Shown here piece after piece: positions 3,001-58,641 of a DNA stretch of 64,000 bases (the first letter of the stretch is position 1; every line of letters begins with the position of its first letter). Source of the DNA: an uncultured Alphaproteobacteria bacterium (GTDB taxonomy: Bacteria; Pseudomonadota; Alphaproteobacteria; Rs-D84). The notes beneath the pieces were generated by a model. That model did no database searches and was not told where the DNA came from. It saw nothing but the letters and a program-made list of their open reading frames with translations. The position numbers were made by a program, and so were the translations under genes. The stretch spans positions 74,966-138,965 of the forward strand of contig CAMRWN010000001.1 in assembly GCA_947054455.1 (NCBI GenBank), written 5' to 3'.

Positions 3001-3237
3001 CACAGGCTTGTCCAGCGTGTATTCCACGAACTCCAGGTCCGCGATACCCGCATAATCCTTGATTGGGAACATGGAAGAAAACACGTTCTGCAATCCGATG
3101 TTTTTACGGTTTTGCGGCTCGACGTCTGCCTGCAGGAAATCTTTGTAGGAATTGTATTGAATTTCAACCAAATCTGGAAGCGGAGTTTGCAAAAAACTTT
3201 TACCAAAAGATTTTCTAAGTTTCTGGATAACTGCCAT
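1..3237 (-). CDS. rpoB: DNA-directed RNA polymerase subunit beta, N-terminal ~1079 aa; the gene's 3' end runs off the window start
   Basis: The reverse-strand translation from the ATG at 3237..3235 reads MAVIQKLRKSFGKSFLQTPLPDLVEIQYNSYKDF... and continues through conserved RpoB blocks (GPGGLNRDRAGIDVRDVHPTHYGRLCPIHTPEGANIGLI, NMQRQAVPL). There is no stop before position 1. It is absent from the ORF track because it is open-ended. Confidence 0.95.
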   Translation of the reverse strand, partial: MAVIQKLRKSFGKSFLQTPLPDLVEIQYNSYKDFLQADVEPQNRKNIGLQNVFSSMFPIKDYAGIADLEFVEYTLDKPVYNVKECMLRNMTYSSKLKLKLRLILWDVAEDGKKTLRDIKEQEIFMGEVPLMTERGSFIASGVERVIVSQMHRAQGVVFATTKESKVAGNPTTYTARIIPEHGSWIDFEEAKGVIYVRIDRRRKVPATVLLRCLPTAEDEKKWLADPRKTSIRGMSDTEILDAFYQRIPLSFDGAMWTGDVASFEGLDKYRLNYDLINPKDKKAMASKGDRLNAKRLGKIMTTSKTFGIKPESLVGEYLFEPVMSGDEVVFPAGTEITEEVLSDLDKMNVKNISLIAIDNTTISAHMRNTLMADKTTNREEALIEIYNIIRPGERPTLEAAINLFLRQGFDAAYYDLSAVGRFKMNKRLKIESGKKPEDERLLSKEDFLAVLKTLTNIIDRKDTVDDIDNLANRRVRTVGELLEQNFRTGMVRIERLVREALSSPNIANMQPQDAINVKPLMSLVAEFLGTSQLSQFMEAYNPLTELEQKRLISALGPGGLNRDRAGIDVRDVHPTHYGRLCPIHTPEGANIGLINHLSTYARVNPYGFIETPYYVVENSKITDKMVYLTADEELGHKIAQGNTPTTSAGVLAEDMVTARVDGEFTMVPKDEIDLIDVEPRQVVSIATGLIPFVENDDANRALMGSNMQRQAVPLMRVQAPLVGTGIEREVARDSRTGKVAKHSGVVESVDANRIVVKCMNSRNVVTGVDIYNLEKFERSNSETLIHQKPLVKVGDRVAAGDIIADGSSMNYGELALGRNVLVAFMPWRGYNYEDSIVISERISRDDVFTSIKIVEKEFKVRDTQLGPETLTRDIPNVSEEALKNLDESGIIYVGARVKQGDILVGRVSPKSETLLTPEEALLRNIFGEKALNVKDTSLKVGPNEEGTVIGVNVLTRHGVKKDERTQMIELQKIEKINKDREEETSIIEKGFADQIFQIAEGMVIENGTGSLKPFIGKKLTEEVFEGIKPADVKKLVVKNKEAQAKIDELREQHVLKLKLLNEKADAEIVKATESNSLSA

Positions 3238-3399
3238 GGGTATCAATCCTTTTTATTTGTGCGTTTTGCAAACGAAAATGTTTGTCTACATTTTACGCCT
3301 GTATGCCCGCTTGGGAATTTCATCCCCAAGCGGGCGTTGGCGGCCGCATATAAACCTGCGGCAAGTTTTTATAAAGAACCCGAAAGGTTCAAGACCGAA

Positions 3400-9014: not shown

Positions 9015-11384
9015 ATGAACAAAATAAAAATGCAGTTTTCACAGTTGCGCAACACAACGCCAAAGTACGTGCAATGGCTGCTGTTGCTGGCGGCGTTTCT
9101 GGTCGTAATTATATTGTTTACGCTGATGATGACGGGGTCTAAAAAAGCGCCTGTCATTGAAAAGGAATCCACCGCTGTCAAAATAACGGTGTCTGACGAA
9201 AACATAGACTGGGCCGCGACCAAGGTCGGCCAGAAAAAGACGCAGTCGATAAAAATAACCACGACCGCGCCCGCCCGCATCGCCGTCAGACGCACCAAGG
9301 ACATAGACGGATTCAAACCGCTGGATACATGCAACAACATAGGCGAGATAACGCCCCAGTTCCCGTGTACAATAACACTGGAATATGCACCGACGCATGA
9401 AATGCCGGTTCAGGGCGTACCACTCTTTATAGATTGGCGCGGCGCCGACATGCCCGAAAGCATGAACGAAACTATCAAGATTACCGTCGTACTGGGCGCC
9501 AGCGAACCAGAACCTGCGGTAATTGCCGAACCCGTCGTCGAACCGGTACCGGCGGTCATCCCAGAACCAAAGCCTGAGCCGCAGCCGGCCCCCACCCAGA
9601 TTCAGCGCGAGATAGAGGCAATCGCCCCGTCATACGATGAAATATTCGAACCCAAGCCAGCAGCCCAAAAGAAAAAGGAAGTTTTCCAACCGCAGACCCA
9701 GGCCGAGATGACAAAAGAGGCATGCTCGGATTTCGCGTTTCCTGGATACGATACATCCGGCAACCAAATCGGCTGGATAAAGCCGGAGGGCGGTGCATAC
9801 TATTTCCATCCGTTTTCGGACAAAAACTGCGACACACCGACCGGTGTTTACAACCCGGACAACGGAATCATAACCGACATAAAAAACACTGGCAATAAAA
9901 TCGGCACCGATGCGGAACACATCGGTTATACAATGATAAGCGCTGCCGCAATCCCACAGCTGTCAAACGCGCCGTCATCAAAACGTGTAAACCGCGCGGT
10001 ACAGGCGCCAACACCAATCAACAGCACCGGCATGGCCAGAATGAGCAATGATTGGACCACGCTGACACAAAGCATTGTCTCCCCGGCACCGCAAGAAGAT
10101 GTTATTTTCGGAACAACCGGTGATGTGGTTGTTGCCACCGCCCCGTACGACCGCACATTTATTCTGCGCCAGTACAAGCCGATTCCGGCAACAATCGTCT
10201 CTGACGTTCGCGCCGACACCGCGCTGGCGAAGGATAATTTGAAATTCCCCGTACGCGCAACCGTCGACCGCAATGTATATTCCGACAACGGTCGCACAAT
10301 TATCATACCGACGGGAACCCTGCTGATGGGATACGTATCGGGCGATGTGCCGGGCCCCTATAAGGCAATCGGCCGCATGAACATAAAATGGTACCAGTTT
10401 GTTTTGCCCAACGGGGTTGAATTTAATTTCGAAATCGGAGACGAACCGGAATCCGCCGACTCTCAGGGACGCATCGGCGTACCCGGCCGTGGCAGCACGG
10501 ATTACATGGAACAGTTTGTGATGCCGATGCTGACGGCGATTGTACCGGCGGCGGTGAATATGATTGCACCTGTCGCGGACAAGTTTGTAAACCAGATTGA
10601 CCTGGACAACAACACCGTCGTGCAATCCGGCACGCTGCGTTCGTCCGAACTGGCCAAGAACGAAATTATAACCGCATGGAACCAGGTTGCGCAAAAGCTG
10701 ATGGTGGACATGATGGACAACACCGTGCCGCCCTTTACAATCCCTGCCGGCACACGCATAACCGTATACGCCCCGACCGATTTGGCGGTATCATGTACGG
10801 ACTCTACAAAAAAATGCTATATGGAAGACCTGCGCAGCAAAGCGAATAATAAGCGCACGAATCCTAAGTGGAATGCGACCGAGGCAGATGATGATTCCTG
10901 GGTTGGACAGGTACGCTCATTCAATTCGCAACAATATTGCACCCAGGATGCACAAGGTTTATGGACAGCCCAAGAACGTTGCGCGCAATATGGTGTATGT
11001 GGCAACTATTCATACAGAACGTTGCTGCTGTACTGCCAATCGCTGAACTATCAGTCAAAAAACAACGCCCGCCAAGAACAGTTGTTCCAGAACCAGCAAG
11101 ATGCATCAAACAAAAACAGCATCGCCAGCATGGGCGGCGTCGGTTCGACGCAATATAATGAAAATGTCCTGGGATTGCAGTACGCCGACGAAGACAAGAC
11201 GACAATAGTAAATCCGTTCCAAACCCTGCCCAAGGAAGAGGCGCCCGCCGCACTCACATGCATGGACGGTTCCAATCCGGACATGAACGGATGCTGTGCC
11301 GGGGAAATATATACCGACATGGGCGATCAGGGATTCAATTGCTGTCCTGAAACGGGTGGCGACTGTTTCCCGCCGATACTGTAG
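9015..11384 (+). CDS. virB10: Type IV secretion system VirB10/TrbI-like protein (789 aa) with a Pro-rich linker and a Cys-rich C-terminal extension
   Basis: There is an N-terminal TM helix (WLLLLAAFLVVIILFTLMM) followed by a Pro-rich region (EPEPAVIAEPVVEPVPAVIPEPKPEPQPAP). The VirB10/TrbI barrel domain is present (VYSDNGRTIIIPTGTLLMGYVSGDVPG...WYQFVLPNGVEF...GRIGVPGRGSTDYMEQFVMPMLTAIV). About 200 further C-terminal residues contain 14 Cys. Confidence 0.85.
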   Translation: MNKIKMQFSQLRNTTPKYVQWLLLLAAFLVVIILFTLMMTGSKKAPVIEKESTAVKITVSDENIDWAATKVGQKKTQSIKITTTAPARIAVRRTKDIDGFKPLDTCNNIGEITPQFPCTITLEYAPTHEMPVQGVPLFIDWRGADMPESMNETIKITVVLGASEPEPAVIAEPVVEPVPAVIPEPKPEPQPAPTQIQREIEAIAPSYDEIFEPKPAAQKKKEVFQPQTQAEMTKEACSDFAFPGYDTSGNQIGWIKPEGGAYYFHPFSDKNCDTPTGVYNPDNGIITDIKNTGNKIGTDAEHIGYTMISAAAIPQLSNAPSSKRVNRAVQAPTPINSTGMARMSNDWTTLTQSIVSPAPQEDVIFGTTGDVVVATAPYDRTFILRQYKPIPATIVSDVRADTALAKDNLKFPVRATVDRNVYSDNGRTIIIPTGTLLMGYVSGDVPGPYKAIGRMNIKWYQFVLPNGVEFNFEIGDEPESADSQGRIGVPGRGSTDYMEQFVMPMLTAIVPAAVNMIAPVADKFVNQIDLDNNTVVQSGTLRSSELAKNEIITAWNQVAQKLMVDMMDNTVPPFTIPAGTRITVYAPTDLAVSCTDSTKKCYMEDLRSKANNKRTNPKWNATEADDDSWVGQVRSFNSQQYCTQDAQGLWTAQERCAQYGVCGNYSYRTLLLYCQSLNYQSKNNARQEQLFQNQQDASNKNSIASMGGVGSTQYNENVLGLQYADEDKTTIVNPFQTLPKEEAPAALTCMDGSNPDMNGCCAGEIYTDMGDQGFNCCPETGGDCFPPIL

Positions 11385-16308: not shown

Positions 16309-16355
16309 TTTCCCTCTCCCCGACGCCTTGGTAAAATTATATCAAAAATCCGCCG

Positions 16356-17776: not shown

Positions 17777-18946
17777 CTAATGAAATATATAGCTGTCGAT
17801 GCCGGCCGCCGCCGCCGCGGATTTCAATTTTCCGGCCGCCGCATCCGACAGATTGTTTACACGCACGCGGTGCATGCCGGTTCCGGTGTCTTCGACGACC
17901 GGCGAAACCCCCAGTTTGTTTTTTACATTCCGCACCTGGTTTTGCGCGGCTGCGCGCGATGAAAACGCCCCGAACTGCACACCGGCATGGCCCGCCTTCA
18001 ACGCGGGCGCGGTGGCGGCCGATACCGGCGCGGCGCCCGTTGCTGCGTTATATGCCGCAGAAAATGTCCACGGCGGCGTGCTTGATACCGGTGCGGCGAC
18101 AGGCGCGGATGATGTCTGACGCGAAACGGGCGCCGCCTTTTCCCCCAGCATTTTAAATCCGCGGTTCAGCATCTGTGCCGCAATATTGGCACGAACATCC
18201 TTGTTCTCGGCCCCCAGCACGACCGCCAAAACACGCGAATTCCCGCGGTGCGCGGTCGCAACCAAAGAATATTTTGATTTGTTGGTGAATCCGGTTTTCA
18301 TCCCGTCGCATCCCGCGTACATCCCCAGCAAACGGTTTCCGTTTGTATATGTTTTGCCGTTGTATGTCCACGACTTTATCCCGAAATATTTCCAGTACTG
18401 CGGAAAATGCTTATACACCGCCATAGACATCAGCGCGATATCACGCGCCGTCGACAGGTGGTCGTCATCAGGCAATCCGGACGAGTTTTCAAAATTTGTC
18501 TGCGACAGTCCGATTTCAGATGCAACGCGCGTCATCAAGGTTGCAAAATTCCCTTCCTTGCCGCCCTTTAAATTTTCCGCCAACACGCGCGCCACATCGT
18601 TGGCACTGTGTACGGCGACCGCCTTAATCGCGTCTTCGACGGTGATTTTACTGCCCGCGGGCAGCCCCAGTTTCACCGGCGACGCATTCGCCGCCGTCTG
18701 CGACACAATCAGATAATCATCCAAATGCAGGCGTCCATGTTCCAGCGCATCAAACGTCAGATACAGCGTCATGATTTTCGTCAGGCTGGCGGGATAATTC
18801 AAATCACCCGCATTTTCAGAATACAAAACGCGTCCTGAATCCATATCCGCAACCAGCGCCGCGCGATACTGCGCCCCATGCGCCGCAATTGCGGGCATCG
18901 CCACCGCGGCCAGCGCGGCAAAAAAAACATTTCGAATATTCATCAA
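17777..18946 (-). CDS. dacA: D-alanyl-D-alanine carboxypeptidase (PBP5/6 family) fused to a C-terminal SPOR domain
   Basis: It has a signal peptide, the SxxK active site (ASLTKIMT), the SGN and KTG motifs, and a C-terminal SPOR-like segment (GVQFGAFSSRAAAQNQVRNV...GMHRVRVNNLSDAAAGKLKSAAAAAG). Confidence 0.85.
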   Translation of the reverse strand: MMNIRNVFFAALAAVAMPAIAAHGAQYRAALVADMDSGRVLYSENAGDLNYPASLTKIMTLYLTFDALEHGRLHLDDYLIVSQTAANASPVKLGLPAGSKITVEDAIKAVAVHSANDVARVLAENLKGGKEGNFATLMTRVASEIGLSQTNFENSSGLPDDDHLSTARDIALMSMAVYKHFPQYWKYFGIKSWTYNGKTYTNGNRLLGMYAGCDGMKTGFTNKSKYSLVATAHRGNSRVLAVVLGAENKDVRANIAAQMLNRGFKMLGEKAAPVSRQTSSAPVAAPVSSTPPWTFSAAYNAATGAAPVSAATAPALKAGHAGVQFGAFSSRAAAQNQVRNVKNKLGVSPVVEDTGTGMHRVRVNNLSDAAAGKLKSAAAAAGIDSYIFH

Positions 18947-18969
18947 ACGAATACTACAAAAAATCCGCC

Positions 18970-18998
18970 CCTGTGGTCAAGGGCGGATAAGTCGCATT
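18970..18998 (-). terminator. Rho-independent terminator after pyk
   Basis: The hairpin atccgccc-ctgtggtca-agggcggat has a T-rich tail on the minus strand. Confidence 0.6.
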
Positions 18999-21047: not shown

Positions 21048-21064
21048 ATTCCTATACTTTTCCC

Positions 21065-23002
21065 ATGCGGAATTGGTTGCAAAATAACATCGGGGACGCC
21101 TTTGTGTTCGCACCGTTTATAATTGCGGGCGGGGCCGCGCTGTATTTCACATGCGGCGCCGAACCCGGCATACCAATGTGGGCCGCAGGCGCGGCGATTG
21201 CGGCATCTATCATGATGCTGCAAAAAACACAAATTATTACGCGGGCAATCGCACTGTTTGCATTCGGATTTTTCTATGCCATGGTCTATACGAATGCAGT
21301 CGACACGCCGCTGATGACCCGAAACATGCGCGACGCCGCATTGGACGCAACGGTTGAAAACATAGATTACACACCCGACAAACACAGAATTTATCTGCAG
21401 GTCGATGCATCCGACATAAATGCCGGCGACGGTCGTGCAATCGTGCGTGTTTCCGCGCCAGGGGATTCGACGCCACCGCAAATCGGCGACAAAATCCGTG
21501 CAAACGTCGGCTTGTTTCGTCCCGCGCCCGCGGATGCACCCGGCGCGTTCGACTATGCACGCTGGGCATATTTCAACAAACTGTCCGCGACTGGATACAT
21601 GGACGAATACACAGTACTGGCCGACAACGGCGGCGGTGGAATAAATTCCGTGCGAAAGTTTCTGCATGAAAAGGCCAATTCCCACCTGACAGACGGGCTG
21701 GTGCTGGGATATAAAAACATCCTGACCCAGGACGAGCGGCAATATTGGACCACCGCCGGCATCGGACACGTCTGGTCAATCAGCGGATTTCACATGACAC
21801 TGGTGGCGGGATGGCTGTTTGCAATATTCTATATGATATTCAGATGCATTCCACGCATCACCCGTGCATATCCGGCGCGCATTCCAGCGATGTTCGCCGC
21901 ATGGTGCGGACTGGTCGGGTACCTGATGATTTCGGGCGTGGGCGTCGCGACGGTGCGCGCATTTCTGATGACAAGCCTGATGTTCGCGGCGGTGGCCCTG
22001 GGGCGCAGCGCGATTTCAATGCGAAACATATGCATTGCGTTCTGCATTATATTTCTGATTAATCCGCACAATGTCATGCAGGCCGGATTCCAGTTGTCTT
22101 TCGCCGCGATTTTCGGTCTGATTTGGTTTTGGGGCGTTGTGCGTCCTAAAATGCCGCGTGGCAGAATATCAAAAATTATTTTCACAGCGGTGATGACATC
22201 GCTGGTGGCGACAATATTCACAACGCCGTTCGTCGCCGCGCACTTTCACACCATACCGACATACGGGCTGATTGGCAATCTGACGCTGCTGCCTATATTT
22301 TCCCTGTTGATAATGCCGCTGGTTATGGTGGGGACGTTTGCGGCCGCGATCGGAATTCATGCCCCGCTGGAATTGGCGCATTGGATTTATGATTTTGCAC
22401 TGCTGGGCGCGCGGCAAATATCGGCGCTGCCGATGGCTGAAATAATAACACCGCATATTCCAGGTATCGCACTGGTCATTATGACGGCCGGACTGGTTGG
22501 ACTGATGTTTATCAAGCCCGGCAGATATAAAATCAACGTTATTATATGCAGCCTGGCCATGGCCGCCGGATGCACGATGACGGCATTGGCGCCGCGTCCG
22601 ATGTTTTTCGCAACAAGCGACCACGAACTGGTCGCGTTCGCGAACGATGATGCAATCGAGTTCAACAAGGCGCGCGCATCAAATCACTATTTTACATTCG
22701 ACACATGGAAGCAGATGCTGGGGCTGCCCGCCGGCACCAAAAATATTCGCCGCGCACACGACCGGGGCGTGTACGATTTCAAGACGCAGAACTTTCACTT
22801 GGTATACATTCAAAAATTCGTGCCGCTGATGCGCAACATTGAAAAACTGTGCCATGACCCGGACATTGATTACATAGTGTCATATTTTGATATTCAATCG
22901 CCGTCATGCGGGGACAAAATTCTGCGCGGCGGATTTGTAATCGACCCGTCGGGTCGTGTCAGAAACGCGCAGCTTAATCGTCGCTGGCATAATCACAGCT
23001 GA
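21065..23002 (+). CDS. comEC: ComEC/Rec2 family DNA internalisation channel protein; no C-terminal metallo-beta-lactamase domain evident
   Basis: A 645-aa ORF with an N-terminal DUF4131-like region and the polytopic competence domain (HVWSISGFHMTLVAGWLF, VRAFLMTSLMFAAVALGRS, QLSFAAIFGLIWFW). Confidence 0.8.
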   Translation: MRNWLQNNIGDAFVFAPFIIAGGAALYFTCGAEPGIPMWAAGAAIAASIMMLQKTQIITRAIALFAFGFFYAMVYTNAVDTPLMTRNMRDAALDATVENIDYTPDKHRIYLQVDASDINAGDGRAIVRVSAPGDSTPPQIGDKIRANVGLFRPAPADAPGAFDYARWAYFNKLSATGYMDEYTVLADNGGGGINSVRKFLHEKANSHLTDGLVLGYKNILTQDERQYWTTAGIGHVWSISGFHMTLVAGWLFAIFYMIFRCIPRITRAYPARIPAMFAAWCGLVGYLMISGVGVATVRAFLMTSLMFAAVALGRSAISMRNICIAFCIIFLINPHNVMQAGFQLSFAAIFGLIWFWGVVRPKMPRGRISKIIFTAVMTSLVATIFTTPFVAAHFHTIPTYGLIGNLTLLPIFSLLIMPLVMVGTFAAAIGIHAPLELAHWIYDFALLGARQISALPMAEIITPHIPGIALVIMTAGLVGLMFIKPGRYKINVIICSLAMAAGCTMTALAPRPMFFATSDHELVAFANDDAIEFNKARASNHYFTFDTWKQMLGLPAGTKNIRRAHDRGVYDFKTQNFHLVYIQKFVPLMRNIEKLCHDPDIDYIVSYFDIQSPSCGDKILRGGFVIDPSGRVRNAQLNRRWHNHS

Positions 23003-26545: not shown

Positions 26546-26905
26546 TTATTTCCCCTGTTTTTTTGTCTTTTTTACCGTTTTTACAGTTTTGATCGAACGC
26601 GCGGCCTTTGTCTTTCCCGCCGCCGGGGGCGCATCCGCGGCGGACGACGCACTCATAATCTGCATTTGCATTTCCAGAATCATGTTCTCTTTGGTTTGGA
26701 TGACGCTTTCCTTTTCGCGTATCATTTCCAACAGGCGGTCGTTTTCCAGTTGGACTTTTGCCAGCTCTTTGCGCCCCAGAACAACCTGGTCGGACAATTG
26801 ACGACGGCGTCCGCGACTGAATAGACCGGTCACAATCGCCCCGACCAGCGCGCCCGATGTCGCGCTGACCAAATCAAACAAAGTATCTATCAACGGTGTT
26901 GCCAT
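26546..26905 (-). CDS. Hypothetical membrane-anchored coiled-coil protein (YhcB/ZapG-like architecture)
   Basis: A 119-aa ORF with an N-terminal TM segment, a coiled coil and a Lys-rich tail. A terminator hairpin follows at 26531..26562. Confidence 0.45.
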   Translation of the reverse strand: MATPLIDTLFDLVSATSGALVGAIVTGLFSRGRRRQLSDQVVLGRKELAKVQLENDRLLEMIREKESVIQTKENMILEMQMQIMSASSAADAPPAAGKTKAARSIKTVKTVKKTKKQGK

Positions 26906-26938
26906 GCATCAAATATAACACGGCGGTTTAAAAAATCA

Positions 26939-32671: not shown

Positions 32672-33113
32672 TATTCAACTCCATCTTTGTTAAAACATTG
32701 TTCATTGTCTTCAGCGCGCCGGTCAGAACCTCTTCATCCTCGCGGCTGATGTTTTCGAACATGTGCGCAATGTCTTCACGGAACACCTCCATCGCCTGGC
32801 GGGCTATTTCCTCGCCTGCGGGCGTGCAGGAATACCATGTATTGCGACGGTCGTGTTCGTCAACGGTACGCGCGACCATTCCGTCCTGTTCCAGTTTGCG
32901 GAACGTGGCGCACAAATTCGGCGCCGGAACCATTTCGCGGCGTGCGATATCTTTTAGACGGGCACGCCCCCCAATGCTCAGCCGCACCAAAACCATCAGT
33001 TGGTTGCGCGGATATCCGGTACGGATATGCGGTGCGCGCTTTAACCGGTCAGCCAGTCTGTCTAAAATCAAGATATTTGATTCAAACAAACGAATAAATT
33101 CCTTGCGGGCCAT
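32664..33113 (-). CDS. MarR-family transcriptional regulator
   Basis: A 149-aa ORF with a winged-helix motif (RLKDIARREMVPAPNLCATFRKLEQDGMVAR). It is the first gene of the efflux operon. Confidence 0.85.
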   Translation of the reverse strand: MARKEFIRLFESNILILDRLADRLKRAPHIRTGYPRNQLMVLVRLSIGGRARLKDIARREMVPAPNLCATFRKLEQDGMVARTVDEHDRRNTWYSCTPAGEEIARQAMEVFREDIAHMFENISREDEEVLTGALKTMNNVLTKMELNND

Positions 33114-33297: not shown

Positions 33298-33371
33298 TGG
33301 GGTGTCGTCTAATGGTAGGACAAGAGATTTTGGTTCTCTTTATCATGGTTCGAATCCGTGCGCCCCAACCA
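33298..33371 (+). tRNA. trnQ: tRNA-Gln (anticodon UUG)
   Basis: The sequence is TGGGGTGTCGTCTAATGGTAGGACAAGAGATTTTGGTTCTCTTTATCATGGTTCGAATCCGTGCGCCCCAACCA. It has a 7-bp acceptor stem, anticodon loop ATTTTGG(T), a GGTTCGAATCC T-arm and an encoded CCA. Confidence 0.85.
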
Positions 33372-33383
33372 GTTTCAAAACAA

Positions 33384-33410
33384 ATGCCCCAGACGGGGCA
33401 TTTATTTTGA
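33384..33410 (+). terminator. Rho-independent terminator after tRNA-Gln
   Basis: The hairpin aaatgcccc-agac-ggggcattt is followed by a T-run. Confidence 0.65.
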
Positions 33411-33636
33411 AATGATGTATCGCGCGGATTGTAATCGTCCGTTTCACACGATTACAGCAAAACGTTATTAACGTTTTGTACGCGTTTTGTTCCAAAACGC
33501 TAGTGGGGCCATCCCCACACCCCTGTGTGCGCCCCAACCAGGATAAACAAAGTCAGCACACAGGCGACTTTTTCTTTGGTTTTCCAGTGTTTGATTTCGG
33601 AAAATAGCAATTTTTTTGAACTTTCGAACTTTTTTA

Positions 33637-33645
33637 TGATAAAAT
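33637..33645 (+). promoter_or_regulatory. Extended -10 element TGATAAAAT placed 9 nt upstream of the protease ATG (leaderless-type architecture)
   Basis: TATGATAAAAT-gcacatgaa-ATG. No -35 match. The architecture parallels the TGTGATATAAT promoters found elsewhere in the window. Confidence 0.4.
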
Positions 33646-33654
33646 GCACATGAA

Positions 33655-34581
33655 ATGCGTAAGATATTTGTATTTTTATCATGTTTAATAACAGCGCCAG
33701 CGATTGCGGCTGATGATGCCTGCACAAAGCCGAAAGAGTTCACAGTCGATAAACGTTGCTATGTTACCAGTGCACAAAAAAAACAAAAGCCATTTAATGC
33801 AACAGTCGGCTTAGTTAATGGTGATTTAAAAGCATACTGTACGGGCACAATCGTGAAGGGATACTACGGATATAACGGCGATAAAGCAACCACACAAGAA
33901 AAAGAAACCATATATGTTTATACTGCCAAACATTGCACCGACCGCAACAAAGACGGCAAACCCGACACTTATCTGGATATAGTATTACAAAATGGCGACA
34001 GTTATAAAATTAAATTTGCACGTGCTGGTCAATACAAGATTCTGTCAGACGAAAAAGCTGCAGGCGACTATGCATTATATACTATAGATGAGCAAACTGA
34101 CATTCCAGGCAGCAAAATACCATATACAACAATAAGCGACAAATGGGGGTTCCTGGGACTCAGACAACTGGATGCACGTGTTGTTGGATATGGCACATTA
34201 AAGATTATGTCCGACAAAGAAATAAAAATATTCAAAAGCAAATATATTAATTTTATGAAACAACAAGGTATGTCTGCCAAGGATTCTGGTGTAAAGATAA
34301 GCACGAAGTGGGGTACAAAATTTATGCAAAACTTAGATCATGACTACCAGAACGATTTATTCGCCAACCATAGCTTGAAAGTTTCAAATTGTAAATACCA
34401 CAGTGTCGGCACACAAATAGGCTGTCAAGCATGGAGCGGTAATTCTGGGGGTGGCATATTTGATAATAATGGCGAACTGATGGGAATTTATACCAGAGGG
34501 CATCGTATCGTAGGCGGGGAAAATCATGCAGCCTCAATTACCACAACAAAATACCCATCAACAATTCCTATCGCATTTTAA
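33655..34581 (+). CDS. Secreted trypsin-like (S1/chymotrypsin-fold) serine peptidase, island-encoded
   Basis: It has a signal peptide (FVFLSCLITAPAIAADD) and a His motif (YTAKHC). An Asp lies in DYALYTID, and the Ser motif GNSGGG is a variant of GDSGGP. The gene is AT-rich relative to the window. Confidence 0.65.
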   Translation: MRKIFVFLSCLITAPAIAADDACTKPKEFTVDKRCYVTSAQKKQKPFNATVGLVNGDLKAYCTGTIVKGYYGYNGDKATTQEKETIYVYTAKHCTDRNKDGKPDTYLDIVLQNGDSYKIKFARAGQYKILSDEKAAGDYALYTIDEQTDIPGSKIPYTTISDKWGFLGLRQLDARVVGYGTLKIMSDKEIKIFKSKYINFMKQQGMSAKDSGVKISTKWGTKFMQNLDHDYQNDLFANHSLKVSNCKYHSVGTQIGCQAWSGNSGGGIFDNNGELMGIYTRGHRIVGGENHAASITTTKYPSTIPIAF

Positions 34582-34601
34582 CAAAATTTAAGGAGCGCAC
34601 A

Positions 34602-34955
34602 ATGAAACAAAAAACAGATAAGATAAAAAACTTGAAACGCGCTGGTACGATAATTGCAATCGCGGGCAGTTTGGCACTGGGTAGCGTGTCAATTTCACGC
34701 ACCACCAAAGACGACTCCACAGATCCTACAGAAAACAAGGAATATATTAAACACTTGGAACATGTTGCGGATGAAATGACACATGAGCAAAAACTGCAAT
34801 TTATTCACGATGGAAAAGAAGTATTGAATAATCTGCAACAGAAAATTGATTCTGATGAAACCAATCCCGAAGAACGCTTTGAGGCATTAAGATCAAAACG
34901 TTTGGTTAATAAGGAAATTGAAGTAATGCAGAAAAAGTTGAATAACGGAAGATAG
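34602..34955 (+). CDS. Hypothetical small secreted or membrane-anchored protein (117 aa)
   Basis: A good RBS (AAGGAG) lies 7 nt before the ATG. The N-terminal hydrophobic segment is TIIAIAGSLALGSVSIS. The gene is AT-rich and followed by a terminator hairpin at ~34984..35010. Confidence 0.5.
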   Translation: MKQKTDKIKNLKRAGTIIAIAGSLALGSVSISRTTKDDSTDPTENKEYIKHLEHVADEMTHEQKLQFIHDGKEVLNNLQQKIDSDETNPEERFEALRSKRLVNKEIEVMQKKLNNGR

Positions 34956-35029
34956 ATATCGGCAGAATATTCTACTAATACAAAGTCGCATCTAATGGTG
35001 CGATTTTTATATTCAGATTGCATACGAGC

Positions 35030-35974
35030 TCAAAACGCTTCTTCGCAACGGTGGGTTTCTTTAATAATCTTGTTTATCTTGGTCAAACTCGCAATATTAA
35101 ATCCGGTTGAAACACCACTCAGCACAGTTGTCGCACCCGCCATCACATTCGCGGTTGTATTCAGGTTCTTTTCCTTCTTTTTGCCAGATTCTGAATTATC
35201 ATTACGAATGCCCGATGAATTTGCCACGGCACTGTTTACTGTGCCGGTTGCACCGGTAACGCCCCCCGCAATACTTGTTCCCATGACAACAGTTTGCTGT
35301 TTTTCAAATTTTTCTATTTCTGTGGCGTCAATGTTTCCACACCATGTTTTTATATTATCAAGTTTCCGAACAATTGGATTTTCCATAGGATTCAGCCCGC
35401 CTACATCCGCATTTTTGACCGATGCAACCGCGTTATTACATGCAGTTATCTGCTGTATTAAATCAGACTGATTATGATTGACACCCGACACAATCGCAGA
35501 CGTAATATTTGTTGCCGTTGCACCCGCCATCAGGCCCGTACGCCAATTTCCCATTCTTTTTGAACGTTTTTCCGCATCCACCAATTGCTGTTGCAATTCG
35601 GCAATTTCAGACATCGGCAGTATAACACTGTTAAAGAAAGTATCCGGGCTCATTTGCGCCACCGTATCGGGATTACACCCGCCGGCATCACAAATCTGCT
35701 TTTCCAAGCGTTCTATTTCTTTATCTATCTGAGCCTTGGATAATCCTGCATATAATGCACCACCAGCCGCAACGGCACCAACACCGGACACAACCGTGCC
35801 TGCCGTCGTCATATTTTTCAAATGTTGCAATTCATCGGATATACCACTACAAACAGCGCTTGTTGCATTATAAAGTTGTGTAAGTTGTAAAATTCTGTCC
35901 GCATCATCTGCATGCGCTGATGTATTAAGCGTCAACACCGCAACCATAAACAAGAACAAATAACCGGATTTCAT
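35030..35974 (-). CDS. Hypothetical secreted protein (314 aa) with Gly/Ala/Thr-rich segments and scattered Cys
   Basis: It has a signal peptide (MKSGYLFLFMVAVLTLNTSAHA). The ATG lies 9 nt from a TGTGATATAAT extended -10. The gene sits in the AT-rich island. Confidence 0.6.
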   Translation of the reverse strand: MKSGYLFLFMVAVLTLNTSAHADDADRILQLTQLYNATSAVCSGISDELQHLKNMTTAGTVVSGVGAVAAGGALYAGLSKAQIDKEIERLEKQICDAGGCNPDTVAQMSPDTFFNSVILPMSEIAELQQQLVDAEKRSKRMGNWRTGLMAGATATNITSAIVSGVNHNQSDLIQQITACNNAVASVKNADVGGLNPMENPIVRKLDNIKTWCGNIDATEIEKFEKQQTVVMGTSIAGGVTGATGTVNSAVANSSGIRNDNSESGKKKEKNLNTTANVMAGATTVLSGVSTGFNIASLTKINKIIKETHRCEEAF

Positions 35975-35982
35975 GATGATGA

Positions 35983-35995
35983 ATTATATCACAAC
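35983..35995 (-). promoter_or_regulatory. TTGTGATATAATT extended -10 promoter motif; 9 nt separate TATAAT from the ATG of the 35030..35974 gene
   Basis: This is an exact copy of the 11-mer TGTGATATAAT, read on the minus strand. Confidence 0.55.
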
Positions 35996-36295
35996 ATCTA
36001 AATACAATCTATAATAAATAACATAGGTTAGCTGTTGTCCTATGTTTTTAATATATCTATAACTTGCTCGATTTCCGGTGCCATTTTTATCAAATCATTA
36101 TAATAATTAGTTCAAAGATTGTTTATCACGCACAACCAAAAACACCCCGCGGGGTGTTTTTATTTATTTACACTTTCGAGCTGCGTGGTTGTGGTCGGCC
36201 AGCATGATGCATTGATTTTTATTTAGCAGAAACTATATATATGGTATAATTTATTGGATATTTGATTTTATTGTAAAAATAACAGAGTAGCGCTT

Positions 36296-36913
36296 ATGAC
36301 AAAAGATAGTTTTTACCAAGGGATCAAACAGATAGAACTACATAAATTTTATCATGGTTCCGCAACAAAAATCAAAGGCGATTTTTTACAACCCAGAGAA
36401 CAATTTAATAGCATTCAAAACGAACGTGTAGTCGGAGCATTTGTCACATCCGACATAAAGCACGCTAAGTTTTTTGCGATTTGGAAATGTTTAACTGGTG
36501 GTGGCCAAACACAACAAGATGTAAAAAAAGGGACAAAAAGAATTTTTTTTGAAAAATTGTCTGATAATATAAAACCAGAGTTCAATTTGTATACAGTATA
36601 CGAAGCGCCCGACACAAAATTTATTCACGACAAAGGCACAGAATATTATTCGCCTGCACCAATAAAAATCTCAGAACACCAAATATGCAATACTGTTGAA
36701 GAAATAGAAAAATTAGGATATGAAATTTATGTATTAAACGAACCATTAAAAAACAAACCCGACAAACAAACTAATAACAATCAAGCTGTCCAATCTGAAA
36801 TGCATCAAGCAATTGAAAATGGAGCGTATCATCGTGTTGATATTGCAAACTTAATTGAACAACAGAAATCAAAAAACATATTTTATAAACTATTTAATTG
36901 GCAAAAAGATTAA
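36296..36913 (+). CDS. Hypothetical protein (205 aa), island-encoded, with no signal peptide
   Basis: An AT-rich ORF preceded by a TGGTATAAT extended -10 at ~36245. A terminator hairpin (aaaccgcc-aatct-gggcggttt) lies at ~36952-36975. Confidence 0.5.
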   Translation: MTKDSFYQGIKQIELHKFYHGSATKIKGDFLQPREQFNSIQNERVVGAFVTSDIKHAKFFAIWKCLTGGGQTQQDVKKGTKRIFFEKLSDNIKPEFNLYTVYEAPDTKFIHDKGTEYYSPAPIKISEHQICNTVEEIEKLGYEIYVLNEPLKNKPDKQTNNNQAVQSEMHQAIENGAYHRVDIANLIEQQKSKNIFYKLFNWQKD

Positions 36914-37098
36914 ACTGTTCGCATCACGCTGACAGACCACAACCAAGATAAACAAAACCGCCAATCTGGGCGGTTTAATATTGGTATTGGGCCACGGGTT
37001 CGCAATCGCGACAAATGTCGCCGGTTCGACTATGAGTTGGCGTTTGGCGCATGAGCGCGGCGAACGCCATACGAATGCCCCGCAGGCGCAAATGGGTA

Positions 37099-37701
37099 CT
37101 AAAGCTCCCGCTGGCGATTGCGACGTATTGTTTCCTTTATTTCCGCGCGGCGGATTTGCACGCTGTATATCAAATCCAATACATGCCGCCCATGACAGCG
37201 ACGCCCCAGAACACGGCTGTAATATCTCCGGGACAAAACAGGCGCATCATTGCTGCCCAAAACCTGGTATGCGGCCGCATCCAAAGACGATGCAAATGTT
37301 CCTTCATCCATATTAATTTCGTAAACAAAGTCCGGACTTAAAACAGCACGCGACGCAACCGCGGTCGTATCCGCACGCATGCCGGCGTCTTTTTTGCGCA
37401 TGCGCTGTTCCAATTTTTTATTTTTCGCAACCAATTCATTGTACAACGCGTTCAGCCGCACCGTGTCATGCGCCAGCATTCCTATCAGCGACGCGTCCGC
37501 AACAGGACAATGAGACGTATCACGCATATGGCGCGCGGCATAGTTATAGTGCAGCCATACCGGCCCCATATAGGCCACAAATTTATGGACTGGTTCCTCT
37601 TCCCAGACCTGGATATAAATTCTTTGGCTGCATGCGGTCGCCATCAGTGTCATCGACGCCAAGGATGCCTTTAGAACCGCATTTTTTATCTTGTTTTCCA
37701 T
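37099..37701 (-). CDS. Hypothetical lipoprotein (200 aa)
   Basis: The N-terminal signal ends in the lipobox LMATAC. No family recognised. Confidence 0.5.
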   Translation of the reverse strand: MENKIKNAVLKASLASMTLMATACSQRIYIQVWEEEPVHKFVAYMGPVWLHYNYAARHMRDTSHCPVADASLIGMLAHDTVRLNALYNELVAKNKKLEQRMRKKDAGMRADTTAVASRAVLSPDFVYEINMDEGTFASSLDAAAYQVLGSNDAPVLSRRYYSRVLGRRCHGRHVLDLIYSVQIRRAEIKETIRRNRQREL

Positions 37702-37837
37702 TTGTTTAAATTCCGGATATGCATAATTTCATAGTTATTCCTGTAAACATAACCACAAATCAGCAAAAATGCAATATGACGATTTTAAAAAAAATTTGAT
37801 GACAAAAATCAAAACAATGTTATTATAGGGTACGTCC

Positions 37838-37912
37838 GCTCCCATCGTCTAGCGGTTAGGACATCAGATTCTCATTCTGACGACACGGGTTCGAGTCCCG
37901 TTGGGAGTGCCA
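37838..37912 (+). tRNA. trnE: tRNA-Glu (anticodon CUC)
   Basis: The sequence is GCTCCCATCGTCTAGCGGTTAGGACATCAGATTCTCATTCTGACGACACGGGTTCGAGTCCCGTTGGGAGTGCCA. It folds as a cloverleaf with anticodon loop TTCTCAT (CTC), a GGTTCGAGTCC T-arm, a G1-U72 wobble in the acceptor stem and a 3' CCA. A terminator hairpin follows (gcccc-aaa-gggc, T-run). Confidence 0.75.
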
Positions 37913-42624: not shown

Positions 42625-42679
42625 AAACGTAAAAATTATATTCGCAATTTGGATTTTATGATAAGGGGGAAATTTTTCA

Positions 42680-42954
42680 TGAAGCATCGATTGCTGCCGA
42701 TAGTTTTTACGGCTCAATGCTTTATATTATCTATGCCGTCTTTTGGTGCCACACCAAACGAACAGGTGGCATCTGCGGCATATGTCGACAACCGCGTCAA
42801 CGAAATGGAAAGCCGCACCGTCAACAAGGACGAATTCAAAACATTTTCCGACGAACTGCCCAATCGCTTTGTCGACACCACCGAAAATCAGACAATTTCC
42901 GGTGTAAAAACTTATACGTCTTCCCCGATTGTTCCGACGCCGCCGCTGCCGTAA
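42680..42954 (+). CDS. Small secreted hypothetical protein (91 aa), first gene of a two-gene operon
   Basis: A strong RBS (AAGGGGGA) lies 7 nt before the ATG. It has a signal peptide (MKHRLLPIVFTAQCFILSMPSFGA). Its stop overlaps the next gene's start (TAATG). Confidence 0.6.
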
Positions 42955-44231
42955 TGATAAAACGTCTGCTGATTCTTTTTTGCATATTGTTCGCACCCGC
43001 CGCCCGGTCGGCGGAAATGGTCAGCGTCGAATACATTCACAACGCCATCGAACAACGCTGCGGCATCGTCGTGCCGTACAATCCCGCGCTGGGCAACAAG
43101 AAAGTCGCCGCAAATATGAAATATCTGCTGACGGCGATTGACCGGGCGAACGAAATACAAAACAACCGGGCCGTTTCACACTACGGCGACAATTCGACAT
43201 TTGCAACAATGGCGGCCGCCGACACGGTCGCGACAAATGACGCGATTGACCGCCTGATAAAGATGCCGTTTACCATCACCACAACGCCCGATACAACCGT
43301 GTTCAACTTTGACCTGTCCGCGCGCGGAACATTTGCGGTCAACTGGGGCGACGGCACGTTCCAAACAATCCAGCGCGATAATACAGAATTACAAACATAT
43401 TCCCACACATACGCCAAGGCCGGCAAATATAAAATCGGAATTGCCGGAACGGCAACAGGATATAGCATTGCGGACGACACCCCAAACACAACCGCGGCAA
43501 TACATTTTAGAAAGAACGAAAACATTGCGGAAATTCATGGCTCGGTTGGGGCAATATTCGGCACCATCGGCGATGGCACGATTGCCGGAAATCAACCGAA
43601 TTTTCGCAACACATTCCGCGAATGCCCCAACCTGACCAGCGAAATTCCCGCCGAATTGTTCGACGGCGTTCATGGCGCGCCCGTTCCATGGATGTTTGCC
43701 GGAACTTTTGAAGCCACGCCGTTTTCTGGTTCCATACCTGAAAATTTGTTTTCCGGCATACAGGGCAGTCCGATATTCGCAATGTTTAACAACACATTCA
43801 AAGAAAGTAAGATTTCCGGCACGATACCCGCAAAACTGTTCAGCGGGATACACGGCGCGCCCGCGCCCTATATGTTCGCCGGCACATTTTACTGGGTGGA
43901 AAACTTGACCGGTAGCATCCCCGCAGGCATGTTTGCCGGAATTCGTGGTGAACCTGCAATATATATGTATCACGGCTTGTTTGTTAATTGTTCCGGTCTG
44001 ACCGGCCAGATTCCCGAAAATTTGTTTGGCGACATTTCCGGCCCCGCCGCCGAATTCATGTTTCGTTATACATTCCAAAACTGCAGCGGTCTGACCGGGC
44101 CGTCGGCGCGTATCAACGGCAAATATCTGTATGAAATATGGCCCGACGCGCCCGCCAACGCAACCCAGTTATGCTATAAAAGCGTAACAGGCTTATCCGA
44201 TTATGCCACGATACCGGCGGCATGGAAATAA
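42954..44231 (+). CDS. Secreted protein with ~6 tandem ~31-aa LRR-like repeats of pattern MF.GTF...L(T/S)G.IP..LF.GI.G.P (DUF285/BspA-like character)
   Basis: It has a signal peptide (MIKRLLILFCILFAPAARSA). Six repeats cover aa ~215-400, for example MFAGTFEATPFSGSIPENLFSGIQGSPIFA, MFNNTFKESKISGTIPAKLFSGIHGAPAPY and MFAGTFYWVENLTGSIPAGMFAGIRGEPAIY. The ORF is translationally coupled to the upstream small gene. Confidence 0.7.
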   Translation: MIKRLLILFCILFAPAARSAEMVSVEYIHNAIEQRCGIVVPYNPALGNKKVAANMKYLLTAIDRANEIQNNRAVSHYGDNSTFATMAAADTVATNDAIDRLIKMPFTITTTPDTTVFNFDLSARGTFAVNWGDGTFQTIQRDNTELQTYSHTYAKAGKYKIGIAGTATGYSIADDTPNTTAAIHFRKNENIAEIHGSVGAIFGTIGDGTIAGNQPNFRNTFRECPNLTSEIPAELFDGVHGAPVPWMFAGTFEATPFSGSIPENLFSGIQGSPIFAMFNNTFKESKISGTIPAKLFSGIHGAPAPYMFAGTFYWVENLTGSIPAGMFAGIRGEPAIYMYHGLFVNCSGLTGQIPENLFGDISGPAAEFMFRYTFQNCSGLTGPSARINGKYLYEIWPDAPANATQLCYKSVTGLSDYATIPAAWK

Positions 44232-55606: not shown

Positions 55607-55673
55607 TAAATTCACGCCTCTATTATAATACACAAAGTTTGTTAATCAAAAATATATTTTATGGGGAAGGAAA

Positions 55674-56396: not shown

Positions 56397-58619
56397 TTCC
56401 TGTTGTGTACAGATACCGCCCTTCATGCTGTATCCCTCATCACATACGCATTGGCCCGTGGTCGGGTTGCGCTTTGAATTGGCGCCACAGTTCAAAACAC
56501 AGGCCGTCCCCCACAGCGTATATCCAACATTGCAGGTGCATCTGGCGTTGACATAACACTTCTGGGTAGGCGACGCAACGCAACCGTTTACGCTCAACGT
56601 CGATTCTTCCTGCTGATATGTGGAATTTTCCGGACACAGCAACGACTGATAGAACATTTCGGAAATATTACTGATGCATGTATCCGGGCTATCGGCGGGG
56701 CATAGCGCTTTATCATCATTATCCGTGGCATCCTGGAACACCGCATACGCACAGGTCAGCGCAACATTGCGGCACGCACCACGCATTACGTTGTAAATGC
56801 TGTTGATTGTTGCTGACGAAGACCATGAATTAACCTGGGTCACCTGCTGGTTATAACATGTCGCGATTTCAGTCATGCATGTTGACGCATAATCCGAAAT
56901 AATCTTTTGCTGCGCGGCCTTGATGTTTACCATCGCACGCTGTACATAATTTACAACAACATCGTTATACGGCTCATAAGTTCCGGACGACGAATATGTG
57001 TAATTCTGACACTTGTCCAAAACCGCACGGCACAGACCACCATCGGTGGTTTTTTGCCCCGTTCCGATTTTCGTCATCAGATATTTTACATTGCACGCTC
57101 CGTCGCCGCCTTTACCGTCATCACCAACGCAGGCGTCCTTGCTGATTGAAGACATTTTGTCCGCGGCTGCCAGAAAACCGCGGTTAATATCCGCATTGTT
57201 ATAGTTTTCCATAAACGTGGTTATATCGGTTATATTCTGCCCCAGGACGACATTGCCGTTTTCGTCGATATATCTTTTCGTCGGGTCCAGACACTTGTTG
57301 TAATCGGCACCGCACACCATGTCGTCGGTCATGCATGCATCCAGCGCGGCGATGCATCCCTTGGCATCGTATTGGTTCTTGTTCTGCAAAACGGCCAGAC
57401 GCGCCTTTTGCAGCATGCGACCCGCACTGCGCACATTTGACACCAGCGTTTCATTCATCTTGGTCAATCCCTGCTCGTACGCGATACAGTCCTTGTCAAT
57501 CGCCAGGTCGTAATTGCCGGTTATCTGCTGGGACGTGGCGCCAACCTCCTTGCACTGGGTCAGGATTGTGTTGCAGCGCCGTTTTGCCGCATTATACAAT
57601 TCCGTTCCGCGCAGGTTTGAAAAACTGCTGCTGGCGCCGGCATTCAGGAAATCCAGACTAAACATGTCGGAATTGTCGGCCGAAAAATCCAAATCTATAT
57701 CAAATCCGTTGTATGTGTCCGCGGAATAGGAGGTCGCACTGACCGGGTCTTTTATCAGCTTTTCAATTTCATCAAGCATGCTGCGCGTTTCGGTGCTATC
57801 CACCTTGCCCGACAGTGCCTCTTCCGCCTCTGTCGCGGTCATAATCGCACGTATTTCATCAGCCGACAAACCAACATAGCGAATACGCTGCGCGACATCG
57901 TTAAGCTGGGTGTTGGCCTCTTTCACGGCATTTTCAACCTTGGTGTATCGCGACAGGTTTGCACTGCAGCTGCAGCGTTTCTGATTTGCGTCGACAACCG
58001 CGCAGAACTGGTCCATGCAGTCATTATACTGTTCCTGGCAGGATTTGTTAAGCTCCGCCGTTTGTTCCAGACGCTCCTTGGCCTCTGCTATGGATTCGCG
58101 GGTTGTTTGTGCTGCGGCACGGGCGCTGACACTGCGGGCGCTGGACGCAACGTTTGACCCCGTCTGAATATTTGTTTCACCGATTGTGGCGCGGCCCCCG
58201 ACCTCTGCCGTGCTGGGGCGCAGCGTCACGCCCACCCGGCGCAACGCGGGGTCGTTGTTTATTGCAGCGGCGCTGACGCGGGCGTTGCGACCAACCGTGT
58301 TCACCGCCGCATCCAGACCGGCGCGCGACGCGACGGCCGCAGACGACGACTGGGCCGCGCGATGCGCGACACTGGATTGACGCACACTGGCCGTATCACG
58401 CGTTGGCGCGGCGGCCGACGCATCAGACGCCGTACGTGAAATTGTGCGCGACGGCGCGGCCGCGGTGCGCGCGACGGCCGTGCGGGCGGTGTCGGTCGAC
58501 GACGGCGCCGCAGTTGCGCCCGATGACGGAATCACGCGCGATGCAGTCGCACCGTCGGCCGCAAACGCGCCGGGTGCAAAAAACATTCCGCAGAAAAAGC
58601 ACAGTGCAAGTTTATTCAT
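56388..58619 (-). CDS. Large secreted Cys-rich hypothetical protein (743 aa) with a ~190-aa Ala/Ser/Thr/Arg-rich low-complexity N-terminal region
   Basis: It has a signal peptide (MNKLALCFFCGMFFAPGAFAADG). More than 45 Cys are concentrated in the C-terminal 550 aa, with no recognisable repeat family. Its ATG lies 10 nt from a TGTGATATAAT extended -10. Confidence 0.65.
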   Translation of the reverse strand: MNKLALCFFCGMFFAPGAFAADGATASRVIPSSGATAAPSSTDTARTAVARTAAAPSRTISRTASDASAAAPTRDTASVRQSSVAHRAAQSSSAAVASRAGLDAAVNTVGRNARVSAAAINNDPALRRVGVTLRPSTAEVGGRATIGETNIQTGSNVASSARSVSARAAAQTTRESIAEAKERLEQTAELNKSCQEQYNDCMDQFCAVVDANQKRCSCSANLSRYTKVENAVKEANTQLNDVAQRIRYVGLSADEIRAIMTATEAEEALSGKVDSTETRSMLDEIEKLIKDPVSATSYSADTYNGFDIDLDFSADNSDMFSLDFLNAGASSSFSNLRGTELYNAAKRRCNTILTQCKEVGATSQQITGNYDLAIDKDCIAYEQGLTKMNETLVSNVRSAGRMLQKARLAVLQNKNQYDAKGCIAALDACMTDDMVCGADYNKCLDPTKRYIDENGNVVLGQNITDITTFMENYNNADINRGFLAAADKMSSISKDACVGDDGKGGDGACNVKYLMTKIGTGQKTTDGGLCRAVLDKCQNYTYSSSGTYEPYNDVVVNYVQRAMVNIKAAQQKIISDYASTCMTEIATCYNQQVTQVNSWSSSATINSIYNVMRGACRNVALTCAYAVFQDATDNDDKALCPADSPDTCISNISEMFYQSLLCPENSTYQQEESTLSVNGCVASPTQKCYVNARCTCNVGYTLWGTACVLNCGANSKRNPTTGQCVCDEGYSMKGGICTQQETK

Positions 58620-58628
58620 TCTCAGCTA

Positions 58629-58641
58629 AATTATATCACAA
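58629..58641 (-). promoter_or_regulatory. TTGTGATATAATT extended -10 promoter motif; 10 nt separate TATAAT from the ATG of the 743-aa secreted protein gene
   Basis: An exact TGTGATATAAT 11-mer, read on the minus strand. Confidence 0.55.

Follow-up and report, generated by a model that had tools for sequence, protein, structure and literature searches.

Gene starts with adjoining promoter boxes

The DNA analyzed here is a stretch of 64,000 nucleotides (nt), called the window, on contig CAMRWN010000001.1 of an uncultured alphaproteobacterium, and our subject is a set of genes, g35030 among them, whose start codons lie a few nucleotides downstream of a -10 promoter hexamer. The window is chromosomal, with rpoB, ribosomal protein genes, gyrA, pyk, yidC, uvrD and an aminoacyl-tRNA synthetase gene, and it also carries virB8 (weak NCBIfam match only), virB9 and virB10. 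Its UvrD protein is closest (59-75% amino acid (aa) identity) to those of metagenome-assembled genomes (MAGs) that were obtained from the guts of animals and humans and carry the label Alphaproteobacteria or Candidatus Enterousia. The latter is a member of Rs-D84, an uncultured order with genomes mostly smaller than 1 Mb (PMC12306168). An initial annotation of the window singled out five genes with such starts:

35030..35974, minus strand: g35030, 314 aa, signal peptide MKSGYLFLFMVAVLTLNTSAHA/DD
33655..34581, plus strand: g33655, trypsin-like serine protease of 308 aa with a signal peptide, in an AT-rich island
46376..46885, minus strand: g46376, 169 aa, without a family match or an obvious signal peptide
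46954..48240, minus strand: g46954 (annotated as virB6-A), helical membrane protein of 428 aa
56388..58619, minus strand: g56388, 743 aa, signal peptide MNKLALCFFCGMFFAPGAFA/AD, without a family

Coordinates of the five promoter elements were read directly and then re-verified base by base by script:

35972..35991, minus strand: g35030, extended -10 TGATATAAT (35983-35991), 8-nt spacer TCATCATC, ATG at 35974
46883..46902, minus strand: g46376, extended -10 TGATATAAT (46894-46902), 8-nt spacer TCATATCA, ATG at 46885
48238..48257, minus strand: g46954, extended -10 TGATATAGT (48249-48257), 8-nt spacer TAAAAGTG, ATG at 48240
58617..58638, minus strand: g56388, extended -10 TGATATAAT (58630-58638), 10-nt spacer TTAGCTGAGA, ATG at 58619
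33637..33657, plus strand: g33655, extended -10 TGATAAAAT (33637-33645), 9-nt spacer GCACATGAA, ATG at 33655

Four of the five spacings had been given correctly in the initial annotation, while the gap at g35030 is 8 nt and not 9. A feature common to all five sites, which that annotation missed, is the TG dinucleotide of an extended -10 element, located one base 5' of the hexamer (5/5 sites); four of the sites share (G/C)TGATATA(A/G)T. The first T of the -10 hexamer lies at -14 in g35030, g46376 and g46954, at -15 in g33655 and, as a borderline case, at -16 in g56388. In a consensus scan only two of the five sites had a "-35" match, in each case of four bases in six (ATCACA, TTGAAC); the TTGAAC is located 18 nt upstream at g33655.

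Searches of the five genes against Pfam and NCBIfam matched only the trypsin-like protease (Trypsin_2, 1e-06; Trypsin, 1.7e-05). The product of g35030 belongs to a large family of hypothetical proteins from gut Alphaproteobacteria.

Enrichment at gene starts and conservation in relatives

Exact TGATATAAT occurs six times in the 64 kb, compared with 0.44 expected occurrences, and none of 100 shuffles reached six. The two strands contain 2430 ATG triplets, of which 3.3% have a hexamer with five of six consensus bases at a gap of 5-12 nt, and nine (0.37%) have the TG as well. An extended -10 at this gap precedes 7/46 curated gene starts versus 2/2384 other ATGs (Fisher p = 2e-11). Compared with its mirror image, the motif is 2.4 times as common; this reversed-sequence control is no guide for the gap histogram, because reversed DNA is devoid of long open reading frames (ORFs).

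For comparison with relatives we used loci around uvrD, around pyk and around g35030 homologues, with orthologous starts anchored by tblastn; orthologues of the five genes showed 50-85% protein identity. A motif-anchored scan of 715 kb of clade loci was noisy from internal ATGs and became usable only once clustered by orthologue. The box of g46376, TGATATA(A/C)T, was present in 14/14 loci (gap 8 in twelve, 7 in two), as was that of g46954, TGnTATA(C/A/G)T, at gaps of 6-9 nt with a mode of 8. TGnTATAAT precedes g56388 in 10/11 loci at gaps of 10-12 nt. For g35030 the box was found in 4/5 loci with gaps of 7, 7, 8 and 10 nt, orthologues reading TGATATAAT at gap 7 (L082), TGGTATACT at gap 7 (L081) and TGATAAAAT at gap 10 (L083). 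For g33655 it was found in two of three loci with gaps of 9 and 10 nt, the latter as TGATATAAT in L081. The TG was kept in 12-14 loci per gene. The distance from box to start is held while the spacer, the flanks and the DNA back to the upstream terminator diverge, and in the 340-nt upstream alignment of g35030 the proximal box is the sole conserved block.

Four further genes of the same type

A screen of all gene starts in the window, followed by the comparative test, added four genes:

21053..21067, plus strand: comEC, -10 TATACT, 6-nt spacer TTTCCC, ATG at 21065
55613..55627, minus strand: uvrD, -10 TATAAT, 6-nt spacer AGAGGC, GTG at 55615
18941..18956, minus strand: dacC (D-Ala-D-Ala carboxypeptidase), -10 TAGTAT, 7-nt spacer, ATG at 18943, directly after the pyk terminator
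26903..26920, minus strand: g26546 (119 aa), TGTTATATT, 6-nt spacer, ATG at 26905

TATA(C/A)T stands at a gap of exactly 6 nt before comEC (Pfam Competence, 5e-50) in 7/8 loci, and g26546 has its gap of 6 nt in all four loci. TAnnAT at a gap of 7 nt precedes dacC in 11/14 loci. The gap at uvrD (Pfam UvrD) is 6 nt in 16/19 loci, and GTG and ATG alternate there at the same start position, which we take as a strong signature of a start codon in the compared sequences.

With approximate operon calls, about nine of roughly 27 transcription units in the window are of this type, as are 7/14 of its first genes with examinable orthologues. The pattern was also seen, using third-party gene calls, at about 7/53 first genes in four independent loci of more distant relatives, among them choline-kinase-like, LysM/M23 peptidase, U32 peptidase and TatD genes.

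The pyk terminator upstream of dacC is a hairpin (18951-18995, minus strand) of CCGCCC-TTGACCACAG-GGGCGG followed by TTTTTT. Its loop carries a -35-like TTGACC 18 nt upstream of the dacC -10, so a single 45-nt segment would act as terminator and promoter at once; several relatives retain this hairpin together with the TTGACC of its loop.

Start codons and Shine-Dalgarno sequences

Duplex energies with the anti-Shine-Dalgarno (anti-SD) sequence, assumed to be canonical, were +0.3 to +0.6 kcal/mol for all five starts, compared with -2.4 to -11.8 kcal/mol for 37 other genes. By this measure no SD is present at the five starts, in agreement with the earlier claim that there is no room for one. All nine candidates lie at or above -1.7 kcal/mol (mean +0.4) and the 37 others at or below -2.4 (mean -6.4), a complete separation (Mann-Whitney p = 2e-6) in a test that is not fully independent, because the AT-rich box fills part of the scored region. 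Strong ribosome-binding sites cited for comparison were also verified: virB8 starts at GTG 6755 after GAGGGGGAG, gene 11623 has AAGGAGAGG, gene 34602 has AAGGAG, and g42679 (noted as 42680) has AAGGGGGA.

In-frame stop codons occur 3-5 codons upstream of all five starts, often as the TAA or TAG that the -10 box itself contains, and the sole other in-frame upstream start is a GTG adjoining ATG 48240. As the initial annotation had proposed, signal-peptide-like N-termini, recognized by eye, begin at the Met of g35030, g33655 and g56388; the N-terminus of g46954 also appears signal- or transmembrane-like by eye. In orthologues, too, this Met is where the N-terminus and the signal peptide begin, and the first codons differ mostly at the third position, a pattern that was visible by eye in the N-terminal codons of g46376 orthologues as well. 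Alternative starts, whether downstream or upstream, are therefore unlikely. On these grounds we consider the start codons correctly assigned.

The same box on genes with leaders

The box is not restricted to starts that adjoin it. Two of its occurrences served as controls:

16336..16344, minus strand: kefB control, TGATATAAT promoter, 27-nt leader, SD GGGGAGAGGG
48273..48281, plus strand: g48313 control, TGATATAAT promoter divergent from g46954

Both box and leader of kefB are kept in relatives, and g48313 has a 25-35 nt leader with an SD there. The same box lies 55 nt before the SD-bearing start of g42679 and is also found upstream of that of g20476. Since it stands at long and variable distances (generally 25-70 nt) from SD-bearing starts, the box behaves like a promoter element and not like a translation signal. 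About 78 nt separate the -10 box of virB8 from its GTG; virB9 and virB10 follow directly downstream, 20 and 25 nt apart, and are presumably leadered along with virB8.

Two apparent cases were rejected. A virB8 start at ATG 6686 would give TATAAT-9-ATG, yet the real start is the GTG at 6755. The marR-like gene at 33113 (TGTTATTAT, gap 12) has AAGGA at the proper distance.

The divergent promoters of g46954 (minus strand) and g48313 (plus strand), at 48249-48281, form the palindrome ATATCACAT-N9-ATGTGATAT. Each promoter has at its "-35" position an ATCACA that is complementary to the TGTGAT in the extended -10 of the other, and RNA polymerase should therefore be able to use only one of the two at a time. 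One member of this pair is predicted to be leaderless and the other is leadered, and the arrangement is kept in nearly all relatives examined. We rejected a CRP-like reading of TGTGA...TCACA at this position, as the half-sites face outward and belong to two divergent extended -10 boxes.

Interpretation and alternatives

From the motifs, their spacing and conservation, the lack of SD sequences and the start-codon assignments we infer where transcription would start and how translation would be initiated. Transcription from sigma-70 promoters begins at the seventh base after the hexamer, with a range from the sixth to the tenth. Sigma-70-type promoters, mostly of the extended -10 form (TGnTATAAT), would adjoin the start codon, and transcription would begin at the AUG or 1-5 nt before it. 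With a gap of 6-8 nt, the A or G of the start codon would be the seventh to ninth base after the -10, within the normal start-site range; with a gap of 9-12 nt, a stub of about 2-5 nt would be left. Such mRNAs, with leaders of 0-5 nt, would have no space for an SD. Since there is no room for an SD and none is present, translation would proceed by leaderless, 5'-terminal-AUG-dependent initiation, classically on 70S ribosomes. The same promoter type would serve canonical leader-plus-SD genes alongside. We assign a probability of roughly 0.8 to this interpretation, namely that leaderless or near-leaderless mRNAs arise from sigma-70-type promoters abutting the starts as an ordinary architecture of the lineage. 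The earlier prediction of leaderless mRNAs at the five genes is thus well supported as far as the conserved box and spacing and the lack of an SD are concerned; for g56388 it needs amending.

Several points weigh against the interpretation. With its gap of 10-12 nt, g56388 should have a leader of 3-5 nt rather than none, and the gaps of g56388 and g33655 (9-10 nt in the latter) reach or exceed the usual start-site window, so that leaders of 2-5 nt are probable for both. In E. coli, leaders of 2-5 nt reduce leaderless-type initiation. Because g46376 follows g46954 on the same strand after 68 nt, read-through transcripts from g46954 may extend into it. The SD energy test is partly coupled to the -10 criterion, and predicted folding of the first 25-40 nt was alike in candidates and other genes (p = 0.6). 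The distant g35030 homologues L165 and L168 are leadered, and a third, L017, has a 15-nt gap and an SD-like AGAGG; the start architecture thus appears evolutionarily labile.

One alternative is that transcription starts further upstream and the AT-rich box acts either as a repressor operator or in translation, as an A/U-rich, unstructured enhancer that binds S1 and promotes initiation without an SD. SD-independent initiation on leadered mRNAs is widespread in some bacteria (PMC4117421). Other consensus promoter matches do occur upstream, such as the palindromic ATTATAAT at 36098-36105, and the box palindrome between g46954 and g48313 could bind a dimeric regulator. However, the conserved letters spell exactly the extended -10 consensus of sigma-70 (TG-n-TATAAT), with A2 and T6 invariant, and the same motif precedes SD-bearing genes at variable distances. 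At g35030 the upstream candidate promoter is not conserved while the proximal box is, and the boxes of dacC and g46376 are directly preceded by terminators. We therefore regard an upstream start as improbable.

The initial annotation had viewed the five genes as a distinct class of secreted and T4SS (type IV secretion system)-associated genes. In its strongest form, this would be a dedicated regulon, marked by a shared GTGATATAAT box at fixed spacing, with co-regulation and a special leaderless expression mode that is no general habit. The shared (G/C)TGATATA(A/G)T of four sites and the signal peptides on three or four of the products are consistent with such a class. So is the resemblance of seven of the nine candidates to envelope proteins, although these were assigned by eye and the sample is too small for enrichment. 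Another supporting point is the weak VirB6-like fold of g46954. This gene is one of five paralogues, the other four being arranged in tandem at 48313-53527 (plus strand). None of the five matched Pfam or NCBIfam, and for nine members the TrbL/VirB6 family gave no match even at E <= 1; a sequence-profile search of the PDB with the family also returned nothing. An AlphaFold2 model of g46954 has low confidence (pLDDT, the predicted local distance difference test, 58). Searched against the PDB with Foldseek, it returned TrwI/VirB6 of plasmid R388 as its top five matches (E 0.025-0.17, probability 0.98-1.0, TM-score 0.29-0.47), and the next matches had probabilities of at most 0.16. The "virB6" label thus has weak fold-level support and no sequence-family support, and a VirB6-like nature of the modelled protein is plausible but unproven.

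Against a dedicated class, comEC, uvrD, dacC and g26546 carry the same conserved architecture of a -10 at the start, and so do the choline-kinase-like, M23 peptidase, U32 peptidase and TatD genes in relatives. An identical GTGATATAAT box is found on the leadered genes g42679, g48313 and kefB, the last with TTGATATAAT. Conversely virB8, and presumably virB9 and virB10, are leadered with a strong SD. A dedicated secreted/T4SS class is therefore largely refuted and we hold it very improbable; -10-proximal starts are one of two ordinary gene-start architectures in this Enterousia-like lineage of Rs-D84.

The weakest alternative, that TATAAT-like hexamers arose by chance in AT-rich intergenic DNA or that the start codons were misassigned, could appeal to the 3.3% of ATGs with such a hexamer, to a consensus scan with 55 promoter-like sites in 16 kb versus 27 in shuffles, and to orthologue starts placed differently by other pipelines (404, 328 and 352 aa), but we consider it refuted by the conservation of box and spacing across 10-19 loci per gene, together with the Fisher test for the extended form, the in-frame stops just upstream and the N-terminal and signal-peptide conservation that begins at the proposed Met. 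Such alternative start calls are typical errors of SD-trained gene finders.

A more far-reaching version of the leaderless interpretation is that initiation on leaderless or ultra-short-leader mRNAs is a major, evolutionarily maintained mode in Rs-D84 (Enterousia), used by a fifth to a third of transcription units in two conserved geometries. A gap of 6-7 nt would give a true 5'-AUG or 5'-GUG, and an extended -10 at 8-12 nt would give a fixed stub of 1-5 nt, a geometry that might be favoured for envelope and secreted proteins including the VirB6-like paralogue. If true, this would imply a ribosome adapted to initiation on very short leaders; we consider this version rather unlikely.

Comparison with known leaderless genes

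TA-led leaderless genes, predicted by Zheng et al. 2011 (PMC3160421), carry a TANNNT box some 12 nt before the start codon, which in certain low-GC taxa is extended by a TG. Leaderless genes have been mapped experimentally in Mycobacterium (PMC3898074), Deinococcus (PMC4007540, PMC12340547) and Streptomyces. The starts described here resemble TA-led genes in the -10 box next to the start, the lack of an SD, the AUG or GUG start and the coexistence with SD-led genes, and also in the TG extension as seen in low-GC taxa such as Lactococcus. The first T of the hexamer is close to the TA-led position (roughly 11-15 nt before the start), g56388 being borderline, and all five starts lack SD complementarity and have an AUG or GUG that, as discussed above, appears correctly assigned. 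They differ in their host, an uncultured alphaproteobacterial order with reduced genomes, and in that several gaps are 8-12 nt instead of about 6, implying stubs of 1-5 nt.

All five sites also have the TG at -15/-14 of extended -10 promoters. Compared with the extended -10 class having a "-16 region" (TRTGnTATAAT), four of them read TGTGA- or CTGA-TATAAT. Textbook cases are defined functionally by -35 independence, whereas ours were assigned from their sequence.

Within the same bacterial class, Caulobacter crescentus has 375 leaderless mRNAs, 9.6% of its coding sequences (PMC4117421), and Sinorhizobium meliloti has 171 (PMC4117421; PMC3616915). As in these organisms, a sizeable minority of transcription units is involved here, and their functions are diverse, with DNA metabolism represented by uvrD here and by dnaQ and dnaX there. 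The status of those genes derives from global 5'-end mapping and ribosome profiling, while that of ours derives from conserved promoter geometry. SD usage appears much stronger in the window than in Caulobacter.

The starts thus extend a well-known TA-led gene-start architecture to an uncultured lineage, and a host-associated alphaproteobacterial order with reduced genomes would join the taxa in which leaderless initiation is routine. Findings in Caulobacter and Sinorhizobium agree with this, and no new question is opened. The chief value is practical and concerns the annotation of MAGs of an abundant uncultured gut lineage. Other pipelines called g35030 orthologues at 328 and 352 aa (upstream-extended) versus 314 aa, and a 99%-identical copy of g46954 at 404 versus 428 aa. 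Because gene callers shift starts in this way, signal peptides and N-termini in MAG annotations of the lineage would often be wrong. Conserved extended -10 boxes also offer a convenient means of mapping promoters and transcription units in these genomes without transcriptomes.

Other features of the window

The AT-rich island that contains g35030 and g33655 extends from 33298 to 37912, has a GC content of about 40% versus about 52% elsewhere, and is flanked by tRNA-Gln (33298-33371) and tRNA-Glu (37838-37912). Its genes are the trypsin-like protease, g34602, g35030, g36296 and g37099. A megablast comparison of the island with plasmids gave no match, and the idea of a plasmid origin was rejected. 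In relatives, g35030 homologues adjoin one to three trypsin-like protease genes, and from this gene order the two look like a conserved module.

Within the divergent g35030/g36296 intergenic region, a strong hairpin resembling a terminator, AAAAACACCCCGCGGGGTGTTTTT (36138-36161), lies about 120 nt downstream of a consensus TATAAT (36010-36015, plus strand). The element at 36010-36161 may specify a small RNA or contain a tiny ORF. The TATAAT/hairpin pair is not conserved in L081 or L082, and a search of the window against Rfam returned three tRNAs only, with no match at this position.

The long ORF at 42717-44231 corresponds to what are apparently two genes, each with its own signal peptide (42679-44231, plus strand). 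The first, 42679-42954, encodes 92 aa beginning MKHRLLPIVFTAQCF..., and the second starts near 42957 with MIKRLLILFCILFAPAARSAE...; the long ORF is artefactual in its 5' part, where it is out of frame. A 556-aa ORF at 880-2550 (plus strand) is probably spurious antisense, with a poor coding score and no Pfam match; it would lie opposite rpoB (region 1-3300, minus strand), which would run off the window end downstream of rplL. The Neisseria DNA uptake sequence occurs once in the window and no uptake-sequence-like k-mer was enriched, so a Neisseria origin was rejected.

VirB10 (9015-11384, plus strand) is unusually long at 789 aa, with weak matches to ASH and Cep192-like Ig-type domains N-terminal to its TrbI domain. 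VirB9 has a C-terminal SPOR (peptidoglycan-binding) domain, as does DacC.

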